Shown here in pieces: positions 4,439 to 63,406 of a stretch of 64,000 bases of DNA. The notes beneath the pieces were generated by a model. That model made no database searches, was not told where the DNA came from, and saw only the letters and a list, made by a program, of their open reading frames with translations. Position 1 is the stretch's first letter. Each line of letters begins with the position of its first letter. The stretch covers positions 17,244 through 81,243 of the forward strand of contig CAWDUQ010000002.1 in the NCBI GenBank assembly GCA_963805495.1, in the 5' to 3' direction. This DNA comes from an uncultured Acidobacteriota bacterium. GTDB lineage: Bacteria; Acidobacteriota; Thermoanaerobaculia; UBA5066; Gp7-AA6. The translations under genes and the position numbers were made by a program.

Positions 4439-4463
4439 GGGCGGCCGCAAGGGCCGCCCCTAC
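4439..4463 (-). repeat. Family-2 REP unit (GTAG + 8-bp stem + 5-nt loop)
   Basis: The reverse complement reads GTAG GGGCGGCC CTTGC GGCCGCCC. It starts 4 nt after the deaD stop. Confidence 0.75.
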
Positions 4464-4483
4464 GACCCGGGGCCCCGGAGGCC

Positions 4484-4516
4484 GGAATCAGCGAAATCAG
4501 CAAACCAGGACTGACT
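4484..4516 (-). repeat. Degenerate family-1 element (GTCAG terminus plus tandem 8-9-nt words)
   Basis: GGAATCAGCGAAATCAGCAAACCAGGACTGAC. The reverse complement GTCAGTCCTGG.. resembles GGGGTCAGTCCTGACTTTCTGAC at 35669-35699, and the AATCAGC word is tandemly repeated. Confidence 0.4.
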
Positions 4517-7956: not shown

Positions 7957-7981
7957 GGGCGGGGGCCAGCCCCGCCCCTAC
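7957..7981 (-). repeat. Family-2 REP unit
   Basis: The reverse complement reads GTAG GGGCGGGG CTGGC CCCCGCCC. It lies between two convergent gene ends. Confidence 0.75.
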
Positions 7982-8015
7982 GAACCGGAGCGTCGATGGG
8001 GGATTGGCGCAACGA

Positions 8016-9814: not shown

Positions 9815-9921
9815 GGGAGGGGGCAAGCCCCTCCCCTACGAATACCGGCTGCTCGAACCCGTTTCGCCTTCCGTCAGAATTTTCGGGCCCTCGTACGTAG
9901 GGGCGGCCCTTGTGGCCGCCC
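9815..9921. repeat. Inverted pair of family-2 REP units (REPIN/BIME-like)
   Basis: 9815-9839 reverse complement: GTAG GGGAGGGG CTTGC CCCCTCCC. 9897-9921: GTAG GGGCGGCC CTTGT GGCCGCCC. The spacer is 57 nt, in a divergent intergenic region. Confidence 0.8.
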
Positions 9922-9957
9922 GCTCCGCCCGTCGGCTACCATGTCGCGGTGGAAGCG

Positions 9958-22885: not shown

Positions 22886-22983
22886 GTAGGGGCGCCCCTT
22901 GCGGGCGCCCTCTCCTGTGCCGTTCGAGCGGCGGCACGCGAATCGTCAGCGCGTCGTCGGGCGGCCACGAGGGCCGCCCCTAC
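22886..22983. repeat. Convergent pair of family-2 REP units
   Basis: 22886-22910: GTAG GGGCGCCC CTTGC GGGCGCCC. 22959-22983 reverse complement: GTAG GGGCGGCC CTCGT GGCCGCCC. The pair lies inside a 427-nt divergent intergenic region. Confidence 0.8.
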
Positions 22984-23200
22984 AGCCAGGGTCCCACCGC
23001 GCCACGGTGCGTGAATAACCTGTTGAGAAACGACACCTCGCGCGGCGGGGAGGGCGGCCGGACGTGAACCTGCATTCGAAGGCGTCGGCGGTCGAGTTCC
23101 GTGGGAGCACGTCTCCGCGCGTTCCGCCGTCTGGACTCCCGCGCCGCGCGTGTGGTGTGATCGTCCCCTTCGATCCCTCGACACGACAACGGAGGTCCCG

Positions 23201-29761: not shown

Positions 29762-29910
29762 GGGGTCAGCCCTGAAAGTCTGAAAGTTGAGCGCCTCTCC
29801 ACGACCGGCGTTGCCGAACTCCCTGGCCGCGTGGCTCGATGCGGCCGATGACCCCTCAGTGTCAGACTTTCAGGTCCGGCCCCAAGTGTCATTCTTTCAG
29901 GGCTGACCCC
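29762..29910. repeat. Composite family-1 element (three units)
   Basis: 29762-29790: GGGGTCAGCCCTGAAAGTCTGAAAGTTGA. 29856-29883 reverse complement: GGGGCCGGACCTGAAAGTCTGACACTGA. 29884-29910 reverse complement: GGGGTCAGCCCTGAAAGAATGACACTT. An extra TGACCCC lies at 29849-29855. Confidence 0.8.
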
Positions 29911-35125: not shown

Positions 35126-35668
35126 GTGATCTCGGTTCTGCTGGCATCGGCGCTCGCAGCCTCGGCGGCGGGCAGCGGCGTGGCGGAGCCGACGACGGTC
35201 GCCAGGGTCGACCTCGACCGGTACGCCGGCCGGTGGTACGAGATCGCGCGCTATCCAAACCGGTTCCAGAAGCGCTGCACCGGCGACGTCGTCGCGCGCT
35301 ACACGCTCGAGGCCGACGGGACGATCGGCGTCGACAACGGCTGCCGTGACGGGCGCGGCGGCGAGAGACGCGCCCACGGTGTCGCCCGAAACGTCTCGAC
35401 GGACGGCTCGAACTCGAAACTGAAGGTGCGTTTCGCGCCCCGGGTGCTGGCCTGGCTCCCCTTCGTGTGGGCGAACTACTGGATCCTGGCGCTCGCCGAC
35501 GACTACAGCTACGCGGTCGTCGGGACGCCGGACCGCGAATACCTGTGGATCCTGTCGCGCAGCCCGGCGCTGCCGGAGGCGGTCTTCGAGGATCTCGAGC
35601 GGCGCGTCGCCGCGCAGGGCTACGACCCCGCGCGGCTCGTGCGCACGCCCCAGTCCGGCGCGCGATAA
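35126..35668 (+). CDS. blc: Bacterial lipocalin (Blc-like)
   Basis: VDLDRYAGRWYEIARYPNRFQKRC.. and ..NYWILALADDYSYAVVGTPDREYLWILSR.. are Blc signatures. Confidence 0.9.
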   Translation: MISVLLASALAASAAGSGVAEPTTVARVDLDRYAGRWYEIARYPNRFQKRCTGDVVARYTLEADGTIGVDNGCRDGRGGERRAHGVARNVSTDGSNSKLKVRFAPRVLAWLPFVWANYWILALADDYSYAVVGTPDREYLWILSRSPALPEAVFEDLERRVAAQGYDPARLVRTPQSGAR

Positions 35669-35699
35669 CTCAGAAAGTCAGAAAGTCAGGACTGACCCC
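35669..35699 (-). repeat. Family-1 single unit
   Basis: The reverse complement reads GGGGTCAG TC CTGACTTT CTGACTTT CTGAG. It lies between the blc stop and the response-regulator 3' end and contains the regulator's actual stop codon. Confidence 0.8.
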
Positions 35700-36391
35700 G
35701 CTAGCCGGTGAAGCGGTAGCCGAGTGCGGTGGACCGTGCGGATGTGCTCGGGGTGCGAGGGATTCGTCTCGATCTTCTGCCGGAGCGAGGCGATGTGGAC
35801 GTCGACGGTCCGGGTCGTGGGCGTCGAGTCGTAGCCCCAGACTTTGTCGAGGAGCTCGTCGCGCGAGAGCAGGGCCCCGCGGTTCTGCACGAAATGTTTC
35901 AGGAGCTTGTACTCCAGGGCCGAGAGCTCGATCGGCTCGCCCGAGCGGAAGACCTGGGCCGCGCGGAAGTCGATGCGGACGTCGCCGAAGGAGTAGCCGT
36001 CACCCGTGATCCCGGGGGCCGGGCGTCGGCGCCGGAGCAGCGCCTCGATGCGGGCGAGAAGCTCGATCATCTCGAACGGCTTGGCGAGGTAGTCGTCGGC
36101 GCCGAGCTTCAAGCCCACGACGCGATCGGTGACGTCGCCGCGCGCGGTGAGCATGAGAACCGGCACGTCGCTGCCTCCCTGGCGCAGCTCCCGGCACACG
36201 TCGAAACCGTTCTTTCCGGGCAGCGCGACGTCGAGCAGCAGCACGTCGAACGCCCGGGCCCTTGCGGTCGCGAGCGCCGACACGCCGTCTCCGGCGGTCG
36301 TCACGTCGTAGCCTTCGGCCGCGAGGCGATCGGTGAGCGTGACGACGAGGCTCGGCTCGTCCTCGACCAGCAGAACGCGCGGCAGCTTCAT
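35678..36391 (-). CDS. OmpR/PhoB-family response regulator; the last 10 codons or so look frameshifted
   Basis: Receiver motifs are LLVEDE, LLLDVALPG and DDYLAKPF. The winged-helix part is ..LSALEYKLLKHF..TRTVDVHIASLRQKI... The expected end ..IRTVH..LGYRFTG* is in another frame (TAG at 35701-35703). The encoded tail RTRLPLHRLAGSVLTF runs into the repeat. Confidence 0.9.
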   Translation of the reverse strand: MKLPRVLLVEDEPSLVVTLTDRLAAEGYDVTTAGDGVSALATARARAFDVLLLDVALPGKNGFDVCRELRQGGSDVPVLMLTARGDVTDRVVGLKLGADDYLAKPFEMIELLARIEALLRRRRPAPGITGDGYSFGDVRIDFRAAQVFRSGEPIELSALEYKLLKHFVQNRGALLSRDELLDKVWGYDSTPTTRTVDVHIASLRQKIETNPSHPEHIRTVHRTRLPLHRLAGSVLTF

Positions 36392-43485: not shown

Positions 43486-44732
43486 CCGCGGTGGACCTCG
43501 TGGCGCACGTGGCGGCTTTCGCTGGCGCTCTTCGGGAGCGCGGGGTCCGCGCGGGCCTCTCGGACGAGGCTGACGCCGTGGCCGCCCTGACGCTCGTCGA
43601 CCTCGCGGACCGCGAGGAGGTGCGCCTGGCGCTGCGGACGGCGCTGAAAATCCGCGCGCGCGACGCCGGGGTCTTCGAGGAGCTCTTCGCGCGCCTCTGG
43701 AGCAGCGCGGGCCGGCCGGCGCGCGAGCGCGCGGCCCGGGCCCGGTCGAGTCGGCGGGATGCGCCGCAGAAAAACTTCGGCGGCCTGCCGGCGTCGGCGG
43801 CCCGGGAAGTCGACCGGGAGGTGCGCGACGGGTCGGACCGAACGCCCGGCTACAGCCCCGAAGCGATGCTTCGCCGCAAGCCTTTCGACGAATGCTCCGA
43901 GCGGGACCTCGCCGCGATGGAGCGGCTGATGTCGCGCCTCGCCCTCTCGCTTGCGACGCGCCGCAGCCGGCGGCTCGTCCCGACCCGGGGCCGCGGCCGC
44001 GTCGATCCGCGCCGCAGCTTCCGGAAGGCCGTCGGGACGGCCGGCGAGCCGCTGCGCTTGGCGCGGCGGGAGCGGGCGATCGAGGAGCCGCGCCTGGTCG
44101 TCCTCTGCGACACCAGCGGCTCGATGGACCGCCACGTGCGGTTCCTGCTTTCCTTCCTGCTGTCGCTCAAGAAAGCCGCGCGCCGCACCGAGCTCTTCGC
44201 GTTCAACACCTCCCTCGTGAGGCTGACGCCCTGGATCTCGCCGGCGAAGATCGCGGCCACACTCGAGCGCCTCGCCGCCGGCGTTCCGGGCTGGTCCGGC
44301 GGCACCCAGATCGGCCGCAGCCTCGGCGCCTTCGTCGAGCGATACCTGGACGAGCTCGTCGATGCGAGGACGGTGGTCGTGATCGTCAGCGACGGTCTCG
44401 ACCGCGGGGACACGGCGGAGCTCGCGGCGGCGATGCGGGCGATCCGAGCCCGGGCGCGCAGGATCGTCTGGCTCAATCCGCTGCTCGGCGACGCGCGGTA
44501 CGAGCCGACCGCGCGGGGAATGGCGGCCGCCCTGCCGCACGTCGACGTCTTCGCGTCGGCGCACAACCTGGAAGCGCTCGAGAGGCTCGTTCCGCGGCTG
44601 TCGGCCGCCAGGGGTCAGCGTCTCGGATTTTTCGGATCCGAACCGGCTAGATCATTGGACGAGTCAGCCCTCGGATCCGAAAAATCGAGACCTGACCCCG
44701 TCGTTTTTCGCCTTCGAAAGGAGAGGTCATGA
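43482..44732 (+). CDS. coxE: VWA-domain protein (CoxE-type) with a repeat-encoded C-terminal extension
   Basis: [14 protein letters not shown] and ..[16 protein letters not shown].. are present. The homology-like sequence ends near ..[11 protein letters not shown]. The final 40 codons or so are read through the family-1 hairpin at 44611-44699. ATGA overlaps occur at both ends. Confidence 0.85.
44611..44699. repeat. Family-1 variant inverted pair (89-nt hairpin)
   Basis: Left arm: GGGGTCAGCGTCTCGGATTTTTCGGATCCGAA. Right arm, reverse complement: GGGGTCAGGTCTCGATTTTTCGGATCCGAGGG. It lies between the CoxE-like body and the coxM start. Confidence 0.8.
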
Positions 44733-48466: not shown

Positions 48467-48519
48467 GGGGTCAGCCCTGAAAGAATGACACTTGGGGCCT
48501 GACCTGAACATCTGACGTT
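48467..48519 (+). repeat. Family-1 tandem doublet
   Basis: GGGGTCAGCCCTGAAAGAATGACACTT followed by GGGGCCTGACCTGAACATCTGACGTT. The first 27 nt are identical to the reverse complement of 29884-29910. The doublet starts 3 nt after the coxL TAG. Confidence 0.85.
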
Positions 48520-48533
48520 TATGGAGGGCCGGC

Positions 48534-49472
48534 TCAGGCGGCGCCGACCCGCAGGCGCCGCCGCGACGAGGCCTGGATCGCGCGGACGAAATCCTCGATG
48601 AAGGGGAGTGGCCGGCGCCGCTTGAGCGTCGCGGCGCTCCAGTGCCGCCGGAGTCCCTTGCGCGTGATGCGCTTCGCCGCGAGCGTGCCCGCGCGAACCT
48701 GGGGCGCGACGGCCCAGCGCGCGAGAACTCCGACGCCGAGGCCGGCGCGGGCCATCTCGATCAGGGCCTCCGTCAGCTCGATCGGCGACCAGCGGCGCGG
48801 CTCGACGCCCGCGGGCCGCAGCACGTAGCGATAGACGTCGAGGTCCTCGCGCGGGACCGACAGCGTCAGGAGCGTCTCGCCCGCGAAATCGGCGGCTTCG
48901 AGGTGCGGCCGCTTCGCCAGGGGATGGCGCGTGCTCATGACGGCGACGAGCTCGTCGTCGAACAGGGGATGGACCGCGATCCGGCGGCTCTTGACGGGAT
49001 CGCTGACGATCCCGACGTCGAGGTCGCCCGAGAGGAGCGCCGGAATCGGGCGCCGCGTGGCTTCGAGCACGATGCGGACGTCGACGGACGGATGGTTCGT
49101 CTGGAAGGCCCGGAGCGGCTCCGGGAGCCAGTGGTAGCAGGTGTAGCACTCGGTGGCGAGGCGGAGCACCCCGGCCGGGTCCGCCGACGTCGCAGCGATG
49201 TCCCGGGCGGCCGAGGCCATCTCCTCGCCAACCTTCCGCGCCGCCTCGATCAGGCGCACCCCCGCGGGCGTCGGTGTCATCCGCTTGTGGCCTCGCTGGA
49301 AGAGGGAGGTATCGAGGGCGCGCTCGGCGTCCGCGAGCTGGTGGGAGAGTGCAGATTGGGAGAGGTGAAGTCGCCGCGCGGCGGCGGTCAGCGTGCCCTC
49401 TTCGGAAACGGCGAGAACGAGCTGCAGGTGCCGGAGGTCGAGGCCGGCGGACGGTCGCTCCACGATGTTCAT
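48534..49472 (-). CDS. LysR-family transcriptional regulator
   Basis: The N-terminal HTH is [34 protein letters not shown], followed by a LysR substrate-binding domain. Confidence 0.9.
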
Positions 49473-49476
49473 GAGG

Positions 49477-49490
49477 ATATCGCATGATAT
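49477..49490. promoter_or_regulatory. AT-rich inverted repeat ATATC-N4-GATAT in the 11-nt gap between divergent start codons; candidate LysR box
   Basis: ATATCGCATGATAT is flanked by two TCATGA hexamers and overlaps the ATG at 49484. Confidence 0.35.
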
Positions 49491-50344
49491 TCATGAGAAC
49501 AATTCGCTTTCAGGATGACCGTGGGGCGCGTAATCTGGCGGCCGTGGGGGAGCGGCTGAAGACCGAGACGATCGACCGGGACGCCGTTCTCTTCCGCGGG
49601 GAGAAATACGACTCGGGGGCGCTGGCGCTCCTCGACGGAGGCCGGGCGCTTCTCGTGGACGGGCTCGGCTCGGCCGAAGACGCCGCACAGCTGAAGTCCG
49701 TCCTCGTCGGCGAGATGGGCCGGCGCGTGGAGCTTCTGGTCAGCACCCACTACTTCAGCGACCACATGGCCGCCTGGAGGACGTTTCCGGAGGCGCCGGT
49801 CGTCGCCCATGAAAACTCCGTCGCCACGTTCTGGACGGAGAAGTTCCGCTCGCCGGAAGAGGCGGCCCACTTCCGTTCTCCGACGTACCGGCTCGCCGGG
49901 CGGCTCGGCCTGACCTGGGGACGGTTCAACCTCGAGCTCTTCGAGAACCCCGGCCACACGGCGGGCACGCTCAACGTCGACATTCCCGAGCTCGACCTGC
50001 TGCACGTCGGGGACACGGCCGTGGGACGGATGGCGTACATCCACTATTCGGCGCCGGAGGCGGTCGACCGGGCGCTCGCGCGGGCGCTCGGCCGGGGCCG
50101 GGGGCGCGTCCTGCGCTCGCACGGCCCGCTCACGGATGACGGGGCGCTCCGCTCGGCGCGCGGATATCTCGCGAACCTGCGGGCCCGTGTGCTCGAAGCG
50201 CGCGCGGCGGGGCGGCCGGTCGAAGAGATCCGGATCGAGGAGTGCCTGCCGGCCGGTCCGCCGGCCACGGACTTCGAGACGCTCTTCCACCGGCGCAACC
50301 TCGCTTCGATCGAGGTGCGCGGGCTCTACGCGGTGGCCGCGTGA
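49484..50344 (+). CDS. MBL-fold metallo-hydrolase
   Basis: STHYFSDH (an HxHxDH variant) and NPGHTAGT are present. The start is uncertain (49484, 49493 or further downstream) because it lies only 11 nt from the divergent LysR start. Confidence 0.7.
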
Positions 50345-50688
50345 TCGTCGTCCTGTTCCGGTCGCGGCTGACCGACGAGGCCGGTGAAGAATACGCGGCG
50401 ATGGACCAGATGCTCGCCGAGAAGGCGCGGAACGCCCCCGGTTTCGTCGACGTCAAGAGCTTCACCGCGTCCGACGGCGAGCGCCTGACGATCGTCTGGT
50501 GGAAGGATCTCGAGACGCTCCGTCAGTGGCGGGAGGATCCCGCCCACCGCGTCGCGCAGGAGAAAGGCCGGCGGCTCTGGTATCGGTACTACGACATGGA
50601 GGTGGCCGAGGTCGTCCGCGAGAGTCACTTCGCGCGGCAAAGTTCAGACTTTCAGGTCAGGCCCCAGGTTACAGACTTGCAGGGCTGA
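50341..50688 (+). CDS. ABM (antibiotic biosynthesis monooxygenase)-domain protein with a repeat-encoded tail
   Basis: The GTG start overlaps the upstream stop (GTGA). [10 protein letters not shown]...FVDVKSF..DGERLTIVWWKDLETLRQWREDPAH is an ABM pattern. The last 16 codons or so and the TGA (50686-50688) lie inside the family-1 doublet. Confidence 0.75.
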   Translation: MIVVLFRSRLTDEAGEEYAAMDQMLAEKARNAPGFVDVKSFTASDGERLTIVWWKDLETLRQWREDPAHRVAQEKGRRLWYRYYDMEVAEVVRESHFARQSSDFQVRPQVTDLQG

Positions 50689-50692
50689 CCCC
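50639..50692 (-). repeat. Family-1 tandem doublet (reverse orientation)
   Basis: The reverse complement reads GGGGTCAGCCCTGCAAGTCTGTAACCT followed by GGGGCCTGACCTGAAAGTCTGAACTT. Confidence 0.85.
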
Positions 50693-58945: not shown

Positions 58946-60036
58946 AGCGTCGTTTCCGGATCCCGGCCGTGTTTCTCGGCGCGGCCCTCGCGGCCGCGGC
59001 GTCGGCCCAGACGATGTCGATCGAGGAGTACGAGCCGAAGTCGACGCTCGTCGTTCCCGAGCACCACCCGTCGAAGGCGAAGTATCCGTTCATCGACGTT
59101 CACAACCACCAGGACCGGGACATCTCGGCCGAGGAGGCCCGCCAGCTCGTCGCCGACATGGACCGGATCGGCATGCGGGTCATGGTGAATCTCTCGGGAT
59201 CGCAGGGGGCCGAGCTCGTGAAGGGGCTCGCGAATCTCGCCGGTCGGTATCCCGGGCGGTTCGTGGTCTTCGCCAACCTCGACTTCAAGGGCATCTCGGA
59301 GCCGGGCTGGGGAGAGCGGGCGGCCGCGCAGCTCGCGCGCGACTACGCCGCCGGGGCCCGGGGCCTCAAGATCTTCAAGAACCTCGGGATGACGGTGATG
59401 GACGGCTCGGGCAAGCGCGTCCCGGTCGACGACCCGCGCATCGACCCGGTGTGGGACAAAGCGGGGGAGCTCGGCATCCCCGTCCTCATCCACACCGCCG
59501 AGCCGCACTCCTTCTTCGAGCCCCAGGACAAGTACAACGAGCGCTGGCTGGAGCTCAAGCAGTTCCCGCAGCGCGCGCGACCGCCGGAGAAGTTTCCGCC
59601 GTTCGAGCAGCTCATGACCGAGCAGCATCACATGTTCGAGAAACATCCGAAGACGAAGTACATCGACGCGCACCTCGGCTGGCTCGGCGGGGATCTCGGG
59701 CGGCTCGGCAAGCTCTTCGACCGCCTGCCGAACGTCTACACCGAGATCGGCGCCGTGCTGGCCGAGCTCGGCCGCCAGCCCCGCTTCGCGCACGACTGGT
59801 TCGTGAAGTACCAGGACCGCGTGCTCTTCGGGAAGGACTCCTGGGCGGCCGACGAGTACCTCGTCTACTTCCGCGTGCTCGAGACCGACGACGAGTACTT
59901 CGACTACTACCGGAAACGGCACGCCTTCTGGAAGATGTACGGCCTCGCGCTGCCGGACGAAGTCCTGAAGAAGATCTACTACAAAAACGCGCTCAGGATC
60001 GTGCCGGGGATCGACCCGTCGGGGTTTCCCCCGTAG
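58942..60036 (+). CDS. Secreted amidohydrolase-2 (TIM-barrel metal-dependent hydrolase) family protein
   Basis: An ATGA overlap links it to the mdtC stop. It has a signal peptide, and ..FIDVHNHQ.. and ..VLIHTAEP.. motifs are present. Confidence 0.75.
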   Translation: MKRRFRIPAVFLGAALAAAASAQTMSIEEYEPKSTLVVPEHHPSKAKYPFIDVHNHQDRDISAEEARQLVADMDRIGMRVMVNLSGSQGAELVKGLANLAGRYPGRFVVFANLDFKGISEPGWGERAAAQLARDYAAGARGLKIFKNLGMTVMDGSGKRVPVDDPRIDPVWDKAGELGIPVLIHTAEPHSFFEPQDKYNERWLELKQFPQRARPPEKFPPFEQLMTEQHHMFEKHPKTKYIDAHLGWLGGDLGRLGKLFDRLPNVYTEIGAVLAELGRQPRFAHDWFVKYQDRVLFGKDSWAADEYLVYFRVLETDDEYFDYYRKRHAFWKMYGLALPDEVLKKIYYKNALRIVPGIDPSGFPP

Positions 60037-61092
60037 GGGTCAATCGTGTATTCCTGTATTCGCAGAGCCGAGCAATGCGGAGATCTCGGCAACTCGCGCA
60101 CGCAGGCCGGGATCCCGGGCCATCACATCCTCGAGCCGCCGTACGCCACGGTTGAACGTCGACTCTTCCCGGCCAAAGCACCTCGCCATGGCCGCGATCG
60201 AGAACCCCGCGTCCCGCCAGCCAAGGTAGGCAGCCATTAGCCGCACGCGCGATTCCCTCAGACACTTACCCGGCTTTTCCAGATGACTCAATGATAGGCC
60301 CTCGGACCGTGCCACTGCGTCGGCCAGACTCTCCGGCGTCCACCGGCTCGGCATCCGTCGACCCTCGCCGACGGCAGCCAGCGCGCGCTCGGCGAACCCA
60401 CGCTCCCCTTTGACGGCGAACCCGTACGCGGGGACATCGTCGTAGGTCTGCTCCTCGCGTCTCGACATCAGCCGCCGGTAGACCGACACCGCCCGGGCCC
60501 GATCCGGCGCCAGAAGCGTGAGCACGCCGTCCATGTCCAACCAAGCCGGTCCCGTCCCGGATCGATAGTACGAATCGCTCGACCAGCGAAACGCCTCGGG
60601 TCGAGCGACGACGCCCGCCGCCACGGGATTCAGATGGATGTACCGCAGCAGGGCGAGGAGATAACGCTCCTCCTGGACGAGAAAGCTCTTGTAGCGGCCC
60701 TGAAACAGGTGGCCGACCCGACGGTGCCGGGAATTGAACTTCTGCGCGTAGAAGGATTGGAGCGTCAGCATGAACCGGGAGAGTGGGTCCGGGCCTCTTC
60801 CGAGGGCGAGGTGGACGTGGTTGTCCATCAGGCAATAGGCGAGGACGCGGAACCTCAGCCGGTTCCGACACTCTCCCAGCCTCTCGAGGTAGATCGTGCG
60901 GTCAATGTCGTCGCGGAAGATTTCCCTGCGTTCGTTGCCGCGCGCGATCACATGGTAGACACCCCCGGTGACCTCGACTCGCAGCGGCCGCGGCACGAAC
61001 ACCTCCAGGCAAGGCGACTTCGCCTACTTAGAGTTGTCGCGAGCGGGATCCCCGGGCACCAGGAATACAGGAATACACGGTTGACCCCTTAC
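60033..61092 (-). mobile_element. RAYT-like Y1-transposase unit bounded by inverted repeats of about 29-30 nt
   Basis: IR-L at 60033-60061: GTAGGGGTCAATCGTGTATTCCTGTATTC. IR-R at 61063-61092, reverse complement: GTAAGGGGTCAACCGTGTATTCCTGTATTC. A single gene lies between them. Confidence 0.75.
60040..61002 (-). CDS. IS200/IS605-type Y1 (HUH) transposase-like protein, REP-associated (RAYT-like), with a C-terminal DnaA-domain-IV-like HTH
   Basis: HUH DNHVHLAL and the catalytic-Tyr region LLRYIHLNP are present. The C-terminal ..RVRLMAAYLGWRDAGFSIAAMARCFGREESTFNRGVRRLE.. resembles the DnaA C-terminal DNA-binding domain. The last 6 codons and the TGA are encoded by IR-L. Confidence 0.85.
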   Translation of the reverse strand: MFVPRPLRVEVTGGVYHVIARGNERREIFRDDIDRTIYLERLGECRNRLRFRVLAYCLMDNHVHLALGRGPDPLSRFMLTLQSFYAQKFNSRHRRVGHLFQGRYKSFLVQEERYLLALLRYIHLNPVAAGVVARPEAFRWSSDSYYRSGTGPAWLDMDGVLTLLAPDRARAVSVYRRLMSRREEQTYDDVPAYGFAVKGERGFAERALAAVGEGRRMPSRWTPESLADAVARSEGLSLSHLEKPGKCLRESRVRLMAAYLGWRDAGFSIAAMARCFGREESTFNRGVRRLEDVMARDPGLRARVAEISALLGSANTGIHD

Positions 61093-63278: not shown

Positions 63279-63376
63279 GGGCGGCCACAAGGGCCGCCCC
63301 TACGCTGTGGCCCGGAATTGGCCGTCCCCCCGGGAGGAACGGGCTCGGGTCGTAGGGGCGGGGCTTGTCCCCGCCC
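63279..63376. repeat. Inverted pair of family-2 REP units
   Basis: 63279-63303 reverse complement: GTAG GGGCGGCC CTTGT GGCCGCCC. 63352-63376: GTAG GGGCGGGG CTTGT CCCCGCCC. The pair lies between convergent gene ends. Confidence 0.8.
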
Positions 63377-63406
63377 TCCGCGAACTCGGCTTCGAGGCTA
63401 GTTCCC

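Follow-up and report, generated by a model that had tools for sequence, protein, structure and literature searches.

The repeat unit and the elements to which it belongs

The window analysed here is a 64,000-nt stretch from an uncultured Acidobacteriota bacterium, corresponding to positions 17244-81243 of contig C2 in a 4.44-Mb genome (69% G+C, six contigs) whose sequences find their closest matches among Thermoanaerobaculia and Acidobacteriota metagenome-assembled genomes. A lipocalin gene (stop codon at 35666-35668) and a convergent gene for an OmpR-type response regulator (expected stop codon at 35701-35703) are separated by 32 nt, a gap filled by a short repeat unit at 35669-35699. It consists of a fixed head followed by tandem 8-nt words, and units of this kind are the terminal inverted repeats (TIRs) of TIRYT/TIRtron elements (TnpA_REP subclass 2.1). 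Its parts are as follows.

35669-35699, minus strand: orphan E-type TIR unit, matching the E-type TIRtron of a genome of the same genus (G018)
35699-35692, minus strand: head, GGGGTCAG
35691-35690, minus strand: spacer, TC
35689-35682, minus strand: word 1, CTGACTTT
35681-35674, minus strand: word 2, CTGACTTT, an exact copy of word 1
35673-35669, minus strand: partial word 3, CTGAG

Tandem Repeats Finder reports a period of 8 over 35670-35689 (2.5 copies, 100% matches), and the spacer TC together with words of the form YTGAYTTK mark the unit as E-type. No E-type transposase was found in this genome, the assembly of which is 98% complete: of its five Y1_Tnp genes, none has E-type repeats. An intact E-type TIRtron is present at locus L017 of G018, with a left repeat, GGGGTCAGTCCTGACTTTTTGACTTTCTGACT, that carries three words and is identical to the 35669-35699 unit at 30 of 32 positions. 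The unit at 35669-35699 is thus an orphan copy of a fifth repeat type, its transposase being absent here, and orphan copies are permitted by the family description. As the relative's intact E-type repeat already has the three-word layout, the 2.6 words seen here represent the native arrangement, with no local expansion.

The window also carries a C-type TIRtron of 1053 bp with a single gene.

60040-61002, minus strand: TIRYT gene, 320 amino acids, with an N-terminal Y1/HUH domain (H62, H64, Y121) and a predicted C-terminal DnaA-domain-IV-like domain
60036-60061, plus strand: left TIR, GGGGTCAA TC GTGTATTC CTGTATTC
61063-61088, minus strand: right TIR, GGGGTCAA CC GTGTATTC CTGTATTC

The left TIR overlaps the 3' end of the gene, the stop codon TGA lying inside the head. 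The protein matches Pfam Y1_Tnp (E 3e-13) and scores 75.9 bits against NCBIfam REP_Tyr_transpos (REP-associated tyrosine transposase), just below the cutoff of 80, and its DnaA C-terminal sequence signal is weak (TIGR00362, E 0.003). The HUH histidines and the tyrosine (H62, H64 and Y121) are invariant in 41 homologues.

Of the five Y1_Tnp genes, four encode long proteins; these paralogues share 34-55% identity, and each is present in a single copy. All four are flanked by inverted units with a word pair of their own, in inverted repeats of 23-57 nt:

Family C, in the window: GGGGTCAA-TC/CC-GTGTATTC-CTGTATTC
Family A, C2:1350364-1351452: GGGGTCAG-CC-CTGAAAGT-CTGAAAGT/CTGACACT, doubled at each end
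Family D, C1:41162-42236: GGGGTCAA-CG-CTGAATTC-CTGAATCG
Family B, C1:432469-433501: GGGGTCAG-GT-C-T(C/G)GATTTT-TCGG(T/A)T(T/C)T

The remaining Y1_Tnp gene, at C1:195930, is a short RAYT of the classical kind, flanked by GTAG-type REP arrays (GGGCGGGG..CCCCGCCCCTAC). The genome holds four transposase/repeat pairs and one orphan repeat type. In all four long paralogues the reading frame crosses the right-hand words and stops at the TGA of the head, as it does in most related Acidobacteriota elements.

TIRYTs and TIRtrons were named for RAYT-like genes with long GGGGWSAS inverted repeats, whose dispersed TIR families occur as singles, dimers and groups (Di Nocera, De Gregorio and Rocco 2013, BMC Genomics 14:522, PMC3733652). 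Most TIRYTs fall in TnpA_REP subclass 2.1 and have Bac_DnaA_C/HTH tails (Quentin, Siguier, Chandler and Fichant 2018, BMC Genomics 19:475, PMC6006769). The head of families A, B and E, the 35669-35699 unit included, is GGGGTCAG, which conforms to GGGGWSAS; families C and D have GGGGTCAA, with one mismatch, at the last S. The initial annotation held that the units match no recognised repeat class and that the words are swapped out locus by locus. Neither statement is supported: the units are the GGGGWSAS-headed TIRs described in those two studies, and the words differ because the repeat families differ, four of these being tied each to its own transposase paralogue.

Several other identities were considered and ruled out. 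The presence of terminal inverted repeats, together with single-copy genes and paralogues only 34-55% identical, excludes IS200/IS605 elements, which have subterminal hairpins and, as a rule, several identical copies, and classical REPs are excluded by the lack of a GTAG head and of a palindrome within the single unit. The GGGGTC at the start of the head recalls a Tn3-type inverted repeat, but here the flanked gene is Y1/HUH and not DDE, which also removes derived miniature elements from consideration. The Tn3-family repeat is 38 nt long, against about 26 nt here, and the likeness ends after GGGGTC. No Rfam family was matched in a scan of the window, which rules out a known structured RNA.

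Periodicity of the words within the genome

The pattern GGGGTCAGNCCTGA occurs ten times in the window with at most two mismatches, against 2.4 expected, and none of 100 shuffles reached ten. A genome-wide census, in which head-like sites were clustered by the 19 nt after the head, recovered about 87 units, 48 of them belonging to the CTGA-type families A, D and E and 39 to family B; clustering under a looser head definition was dominated by coding repeats and GTAG REPs and was set aside. Autocorrelation was computed over the 24 nt after the head and compared with shuffles. At lag 8 it reaches 0.49 in families A, D and E (0.24 for shuffles, z 15.8), with other lags far below (lag 1, z 4.9; lag 7, z 2.6), and 0.46 in family B (0.28 for shuffles, z 10.4), where smaller shoulders are seen at lags 7 (z 5.5), 9 (z 4.6) and 1 (z 6.6). 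The two words of the same unit are 72.7% identical, compared with 59.6% for permuted partners (z 6.7), and periods 7 and 9 give no signal in this comparison.

The 8-nt phase proposed in the initial annotation, whose quoted sequences are all present where it placed them, is thus real and non-random, and the genome-wide catalogue shows that it is not confined to the window. The fixed terminus likewise holds, the head being far more conserved than the words. The accompanying proposal that words begin with CTGA, complementary to the head, is correct for families A, D and E, where 42-47 of the 47 distinct units have CTGA at positions 11-14 and 19-22, but family B (TCGATTTT TCGGATTT), family C (GTGTATTC CTGTATTC) and the majority of lineages elsewhere do not conform to it. 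The sequence cited from 4486-4502 is present, but belongs to a decayed minus-strand unit (head CCAGTCAG) that is only partly in phase.

Conservation of the architecture across lineages

Is this layout peculiar to one genome? A scan of species-representative genomes confirmed 537 relatives; 80 loci were fetched, and the best inverted repeat around each gene was sought without bias. A repeat of about 24-30 nt headed (G)GGGTCA(G/A) was recovered in the great majority of these loci, which represent Acidobacteriota, Nitrospirota, Desulfobacterota, Omnitrophota, Planctomycetota and others, and some 60 TIRtrons from the first four of these phyla and others have a head with tandem words. The words differ between lineages in sequence and in period:

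Period 8: CTGAACTC CTGAACTC; ATGCACTC ATGCACT; TTGTATTG TGGTATTT
Period 7: CTGATTT CTGATTT; TTGACAT TTGACAT; TACAGAA TACAGA; TCTTGAT TCTTGAG
Period 6: TTGACA TTGACA

The set was reduced to 33 distinct word types by clustering at a Hamming distance of at most 3 (single linkage at a distance of at most 6 chained everything into five clusters). Averaged over the 33 types, autocorrelation comes to 0.356 (z 5.1) for lag 7 and 0.361 (z 5.2) for lag 8, values that none of 4000 shuffles reached at either lag; lags other than 7 and 8 are not raised, and 24 of the 33 types peak at one of these two. The lag signal is in part a shared YTGA-like consensus, comparison between repeats at lags 7 and 8 giving 0.30 against about 0.24. 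Within-repeat identity lies above between-repeat identity (p 0.005 at lag 7, p 0.001 at lag 8), and therefore the two words of a repeat co-vary beyond the shared consensus. In addition, this genome and locus L003 share the 25-nt stretch GGGGTCAATCGTGTATTCCTGTATT without a single difference, although the proteins are only 63% identical, which further counters the idea of frequent word swapping. TIRtrons thus have a family-wide architecture, a conserved head with two tandem words of 7-8 nt behind it, and the words are conserved, lineage-specific and co-varying.

A DnaA-like tail as candidate reader of the words

An AlphaFold2 model of the TIRYT at 60040-61002, built from 41 homologues, has a mean pLDDT of 89.6. 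Foldseek searches of the PDB match its N-terminal domain to TnpA_REP in complex with a REP hairpin (4ER8, TMt 0.76) and to the IS608 and ISDra2 transposases, and its C-terminal domain to the DNA-binding domain of DnaA on a DnaA box (3PVP, TMt 0.92, root-mean-square deviation 1.3 Å), with 1J1V as a second match (TMt 0.86; deviations of 1.3-1.6 Å over the two structures). As modelled, the C-terminal domain of TIRYT has a DnaA-type fold that binds double-stranded DNA.

Two observations relate this domain to the words. The catalytic domain is conserved (mean pairwise distance 0.44) and the C-terminal domain divergent (0.75), a division that parallels that between the conserved head and the variable words; and word distance correlates with C-terminal-domain distance when the N-terminal domain is controlled for (partial r 0.32, reached in none of 5000 permutations). 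Furthermore, the segment aligned with the DnaA recognition helix varies between word types and is common within a type:

Motif REES-TFNRG: word GTGTATTC
Motif HET-TIVKD: word CTGAATTC
Motif RDDS-xFxRP: word YTGAYTTG
Motif ES-AVSQASRRF: word TACACA/TTGACA

The motif GREESTFNRGVRRLE aligns by eye with the recognition-helix region of DnaA. The resemblance to DnaA domain IV (1J1V, 3PVP) lies in the superposition of the TIRYT C-terminal domain upon it; the base-contacting positions of domain IV on DnaA boxes differ in TIRYT, the words are unlike the box consensus TTATCCACA, and the word period of 7-8 bp is shorter than the 9-bp box. In two other lineages, in partial exception to this, the inner word is itself DnaA-box-like (TTATCCAC at L063, which lies outside the 33 word types tested, and TAATCCAC at L068).

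We therefore put forward the following explanation, to which we assign a probability of roughly 0.6: the units are TIRs of TIRYT/TIRtron elements, and their words are tandem docking sites on double-stranded DNA for the DnaA-like tail of the transposase. TIRYT is a RAYT-like Y1 (HUH) transposase with a DNA-binding domain of the DnaA-domain-IV type at its C-terminus, and each repeat has two modules. At the outer edge lies the near-universal 8-nt head, GGGGTCA(G/A), probably the site handled, and presumably cleaved, by the conserved catalytic domain. Two or sometimes three tandem words begin 2-3 nt after the head, with a period of 8 nt in this Acidobacteriota clade and of 7, occasionally 6, elsewhere. 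These lineage-specific words are most likely bound by the variable DnaA-like domain, and would give each transposase paralogue its own address; at the left end, where the inner word may serve as a -35 box, binding would also make the element autoregulatory. We hold more tentatively, at somewhat less than even odds, the fuller proposal of a two-part code, in which the HUH domain cuts a universal head and the DnaA-type domain reads the word pair, the words co-evolving with the recognition helix.

Several points weigh against this explanation. Word distance is related almost as well to the N-terminal domain when the tail is controlled for (partial r 0.29); word type, C-terminal domain and N-terminal domain all follow phylogeny, and the link between protein and word may reflect shared descent only. 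Nine of the 33 word types lack a clear 7-8-nt repeat. Family A copies vary at the four non-CTGA positions, and therefore recognition, if any, tolerates much variation. A period of 7-8 bp is tighter than a DnaA box of about 9 bp plus spacing, and adjacent DnaA-type domains may clash. HUH enzymes act on single-stranded DNA, which a model of double-stranded binding does not by itself explain. The searchable literature yielded no biochemical data on any TIRYT, and Quentin et al. argued that recognition of the repeat may not be a function of the tail at all, its target perhaps being the replication fork (PMC6006769).

Alternative explanations

Could the words act through base pairing between inverted repeats? 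On one strand, the words of one repeat could pair with those of its inverted partner to form a REPIN-like hairpin or panhandle whose stem can slip by one word, leaving the heads single-stranded beside a duplex, the substrate geometry cut by HUH/Y1 enzymes. Inverted doublets are indeed common (13 B-type and about 8 A/E-type, of 57-149 nt) and fold strongly as single strands, the doublet at 29762-29910 reaching -38.8 kcal/mol (z -5.9) and another -24.3 kcal/mol (z -9.2); the Y1 transposases of IS608/ISDra2 and TnpA_REP, matched here through 2VJV, 2XMA and 4ER8, recognise hairpins and adjacent single-stranded DNA. Inverted repeats alone, however, suffice to make such a stem, and internal direct repeats are not needed. 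Many doublets have different words in their two arms, and in-register pairing then contains internal loops (as at C4:912329-912390). Nor does such pairing explain why word type tracks the DNA-binding tail, and we regard it as unlikely to be what the words are for.

A second possibility is that the words are mainly promoter or regulatory sequence, the inner one being a -35 box, the upstream one an accidental or UP-like near-copy, and all other copies present by the symmetry of the repeat. We scanned 13 TIRtrons with a TTGACA-like word for a -10 hexamer. A -10-like hexamer lies 16-19 nt downstream at six of the 13 left ends by regular expression, or nine with the addition of three read by eye (from the second TTGACA), and at none of the 13 right ends; left ends of this kind include TTGACA-17-TAGAAT, TTGACA-16-TACAAT and TTGACA-17-TATAAT. 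To judge from spacing and sequence, the transposase gene in some lineages can thus use the inner word as its -35 box, and the cross-lineage word consensus, YTGA(C), is itself TTGACA-like. As an account of the words in general this is distinctly unlikely: no properly spaced -10 follows the words in this genome's clade, duplicated words such as GTGTATTC, ATGCACTC and TCGATTTT are unlike a -35 box, and the lineage-specific covariation of words 1 and 2 is left unexplained.

The sole conserved upstream element in this genome's clade is TCGCGACAA, 20-30 nt before the start codon. A motif (T/C)(C/T)GCGACAA(C/T/A) precedes the start of all five Y1 genes by about 20-30 nt, that of the classical RAYT included (window 61033-61045; C2:1350420; C1:42140; C1:432510; C1:195800), and may be a promoter or operator element.

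The initial annotation had instead suggested that the GTCAG of the head pairs in single-stranded DNA with the CTGAC of any of the words, giving register-shifted hairpins, and that the words arise by slippage or templated copying. The 35669-35699 unit can form such a stem (GTCAG:CTGAC, 5 bp, with a 10-nt loop), CTGA is near-invariant at the two sites given above in families A, D and E, and the orthologous copy in the related genome G014 is shorter by one 8-nt word. Yet the stem amounts to only -2.9 kcal/mol on either strand and is matched by 41-65 of 200 shuffles (z -0.4 to -0.7, the 65 shuffles going with z -0.4). For single units of families A and C, z is -0.15 and +0.13; the folding of single units does not surpass that of shuffled sequence, and head-word hairpins are not supported. 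The complementarity is also missing where words lack CTGA, that is, in families B and C and most lineages elsewhere. Each word type is tied to its own transposase paralogue, and a word pair that stays identical at 63% protein identity is the opposite of frequent swapping. Shifting hairpins are accordingly very improbable.

Family B differs in one respect. Its units (C1:432469-433501 and 38 others) have a conserved CCGAAA(A) 5-6 nt outside the head, at -12 to -7 (44700-44712 in the window), whose reverse complement is found in the inner word, TTTTTCGG. The outer motif and inner word could form an 8-bp stem (-10.2 kcal/mol, z -1.9) that places the head in the loop, or the outer motif could be a third, inverted binding site. 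A hairpin of this kind was dropped as a general mechanism, because family A and most other lineages showed no equivalent.

It is equally improbable that the periodicity is a neutral relic of an ancestral tandem duplication, similarity inherited without function of its own: all the repeats are homologous and their between-lineage cross-correlation at lags 7 and 8 is raised, but the words of a repeat change together, are wholly different between lineages yet still duplicated, and are more strongly conserved as pairs than the protein is.

Other repeat units and the orthologous site

The remaining units of this type in the window are these.

29762-29910: A-type inverted doublet of 149 nt, resembling a miniature inverted-repeat transposable element or REPIN; left unit GGGGTCAGCC CTGAAAGT CTGAAAGT, right end a double unit
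44611-44699: B-type inverted doublet of 89 nt; arms GGGGTCAG(G/C)(T/G)TCTCG(G)ATTTTTCGGATCC, with an outer CGAAAAA just past the right head
48467-48520, plus strand: A-type double unit, GGGGTCAGCC CTGAAAGA ATGACACT T, then GGGGCCTGAC CTGAACAT CTGACGTT T
50639-50692, minus strand: A-type double unit, inverted relative to 48467-48520 and 81% complementary to it
4486-4516, minus strand: decayed E-like unit; head CCAGTCAG, spacer TC, words CTGGTTTG CTGATTTC GCTGATTC

Most dispersed copies in the genome are symmetric doublets. There are about 21 gene-less doublets with the heads outwards, two of them in the window, and tandem double units and solo units also occur; inspection of doublet flanks by eye revealed no evident target-site duplications. 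Units comparable to the decayed one at 4486-4516 lie at C5:6870 and C5:7097. By our own count some 15 E-type units, most of their type, lie together in a degraded stretch of 8 kb with which contig C5 begins, and C5:1-10000 also holds SLH-like gene fragments and an open reading frame that resembles, by eye, an IS110-family transposase. This region may be the remnant of the neighbourhood of a lost E-type TIRtron.

The inverted double units at 48467-50692 bracket a 2.1-kb segment that contains a gene for a LysR-family regulator (48534-49472, minus strand) together with a 273-amino-acid open reading frame without a Pfam match (49469-50290), an arrangement that could be a composite, cargo-carrying element or a coincidence. 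The window contains a second repeat family as well, GTAG-type REP hairpins of the form GGGCGGCC-ACAA-GGGCCGCCC-CTAC, which match the arrays flanking the classical RAYT at C1:195930:

4439-4473, 7957-7991, 9885-9923, 22959-22993 and 63279-63379: GTAG-type REP hairpins

The site 3' of the lipocalin gene is occupied differently in congeners. The orthologous site has a decayed copy, shorter by exactly one 8-nt word, in G014 (L092), an A-like unit in G018 (L090), and B-like units in G007 (L089), where, as in this genome, the head abuts the regulator's stop codon. At this single locus, different families at one intergenic position suggest repeated insertion, or exchange at existing heads, and the number of words has possibly changed as well. 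The OmpR-type regulator itself (35678-36391, minus strand) ends ...IRTVHRTRLPLHRLAGSVLTF*, reading into the repeat unit (35678-35730), and its G007 orthologue ends ...TVHRLGYRFTG* at a TAG adjoining the head. One extra base in this genome (CACCGCACTCGG vs CACCGACTCGG in G007) shifts the frame of the last eight or so codons, a difference that is either real or an assembly error.

Relation to known systems and implications

The elements share with described TIRYT/TIRtrons a Y1/HUH gene, TIRs of about 25-30 nt with a GGGGWSAS head, a C-terminal Bac_DnaA_C/HTH tail and single-copy genes, as well as moderately abundant dispersed copies and, as in Koribacter versatilis, several paralogues with different repeats. 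They depart from that description in two paralogues headed GGGGTCAA and in a unit, at 35669-35699, without its transposase. The accessible text of PMC3733652 and PMC6006769 reports only the head, GGGGWSAS, which Quentin et al. remark is unlike a DnaA box; tandem 7-8-nt words, their covariation, a link to the recognition helix and an overlap with a -35 box were not found in that text. In the part of the literature open to searching, neither the arrangement in tandem words nor a link between it and the DnaA-like tail seems to have been reported.

With REP/BIME-RAYT systems and REPINs (Nunvar 2010; Bertels and Rainey 2011, PMC3116915; Ton-Hoang 2012; Messing 2012, 4ER8) the elements have in common a single-copy Y1 transposase flanked by an inverted short intergenic repeat, inverted doublets that form long hairpins, and several orthogonal repeat/transposase pairs per genome. 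In contrast to these, the units lack GTAG and a palindrome within the single unit, and their internal repeats are direct, not inverted. The TIRYT protein has in addition, on the evidence of its modelled fold, an extra domain that would bind double-stranded DNA.

The arrangement also recalls classical transposons. In the multiple terminal repeats of IS21, the R1-R3 and L1-L3 sites of Mu and the TnsB sites of Tn7, a terminal cleavage sequence is accompanied by direct repeats bound by the transposase, and the sites at one end often overlap the transposase promoter and autoregulate it. Those systems use DDE transposases on double-stranded DNA and sites of 17-22 bp, whereas TIRYT is an HUH/Y1 enzyme with 7-8-nt repeats that it would bind.

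The periodic units are thus explained by a known, if poorly studied, class of element, not by a new repeat class or by shifting hairpins, and the observation refines a known system. For annotation, this accounts for a set of unusual intergenic repeats that have a GGGGTCAG head and occur in Thermoanaerobaculia as well as in other phyla, with word variants marking different repeat families, including orphans whose transposase was lost. TIRYT/TIRtrons are widespread, as the number of relatives in our scan indicates, and the role of their DnaA-like tail is a question raised by Quentin et al. 2018. A head with lineage-specific words, a recognition helix that tracks them and an overlap with the -35 box make the question of whether the tail reads the words a concrete one. 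If the two-part code is true, several orthogonal transposase/repeat systems could coexist in one genome, as four do here, and end recognition would be coupled to autoregulation of the promoter. TIRYTs would in that case form a natural collection of re-addressable HUH nucleases, in which the DNA-binding fold of a replication initiator has been recruited for the recognition of transposon ends.

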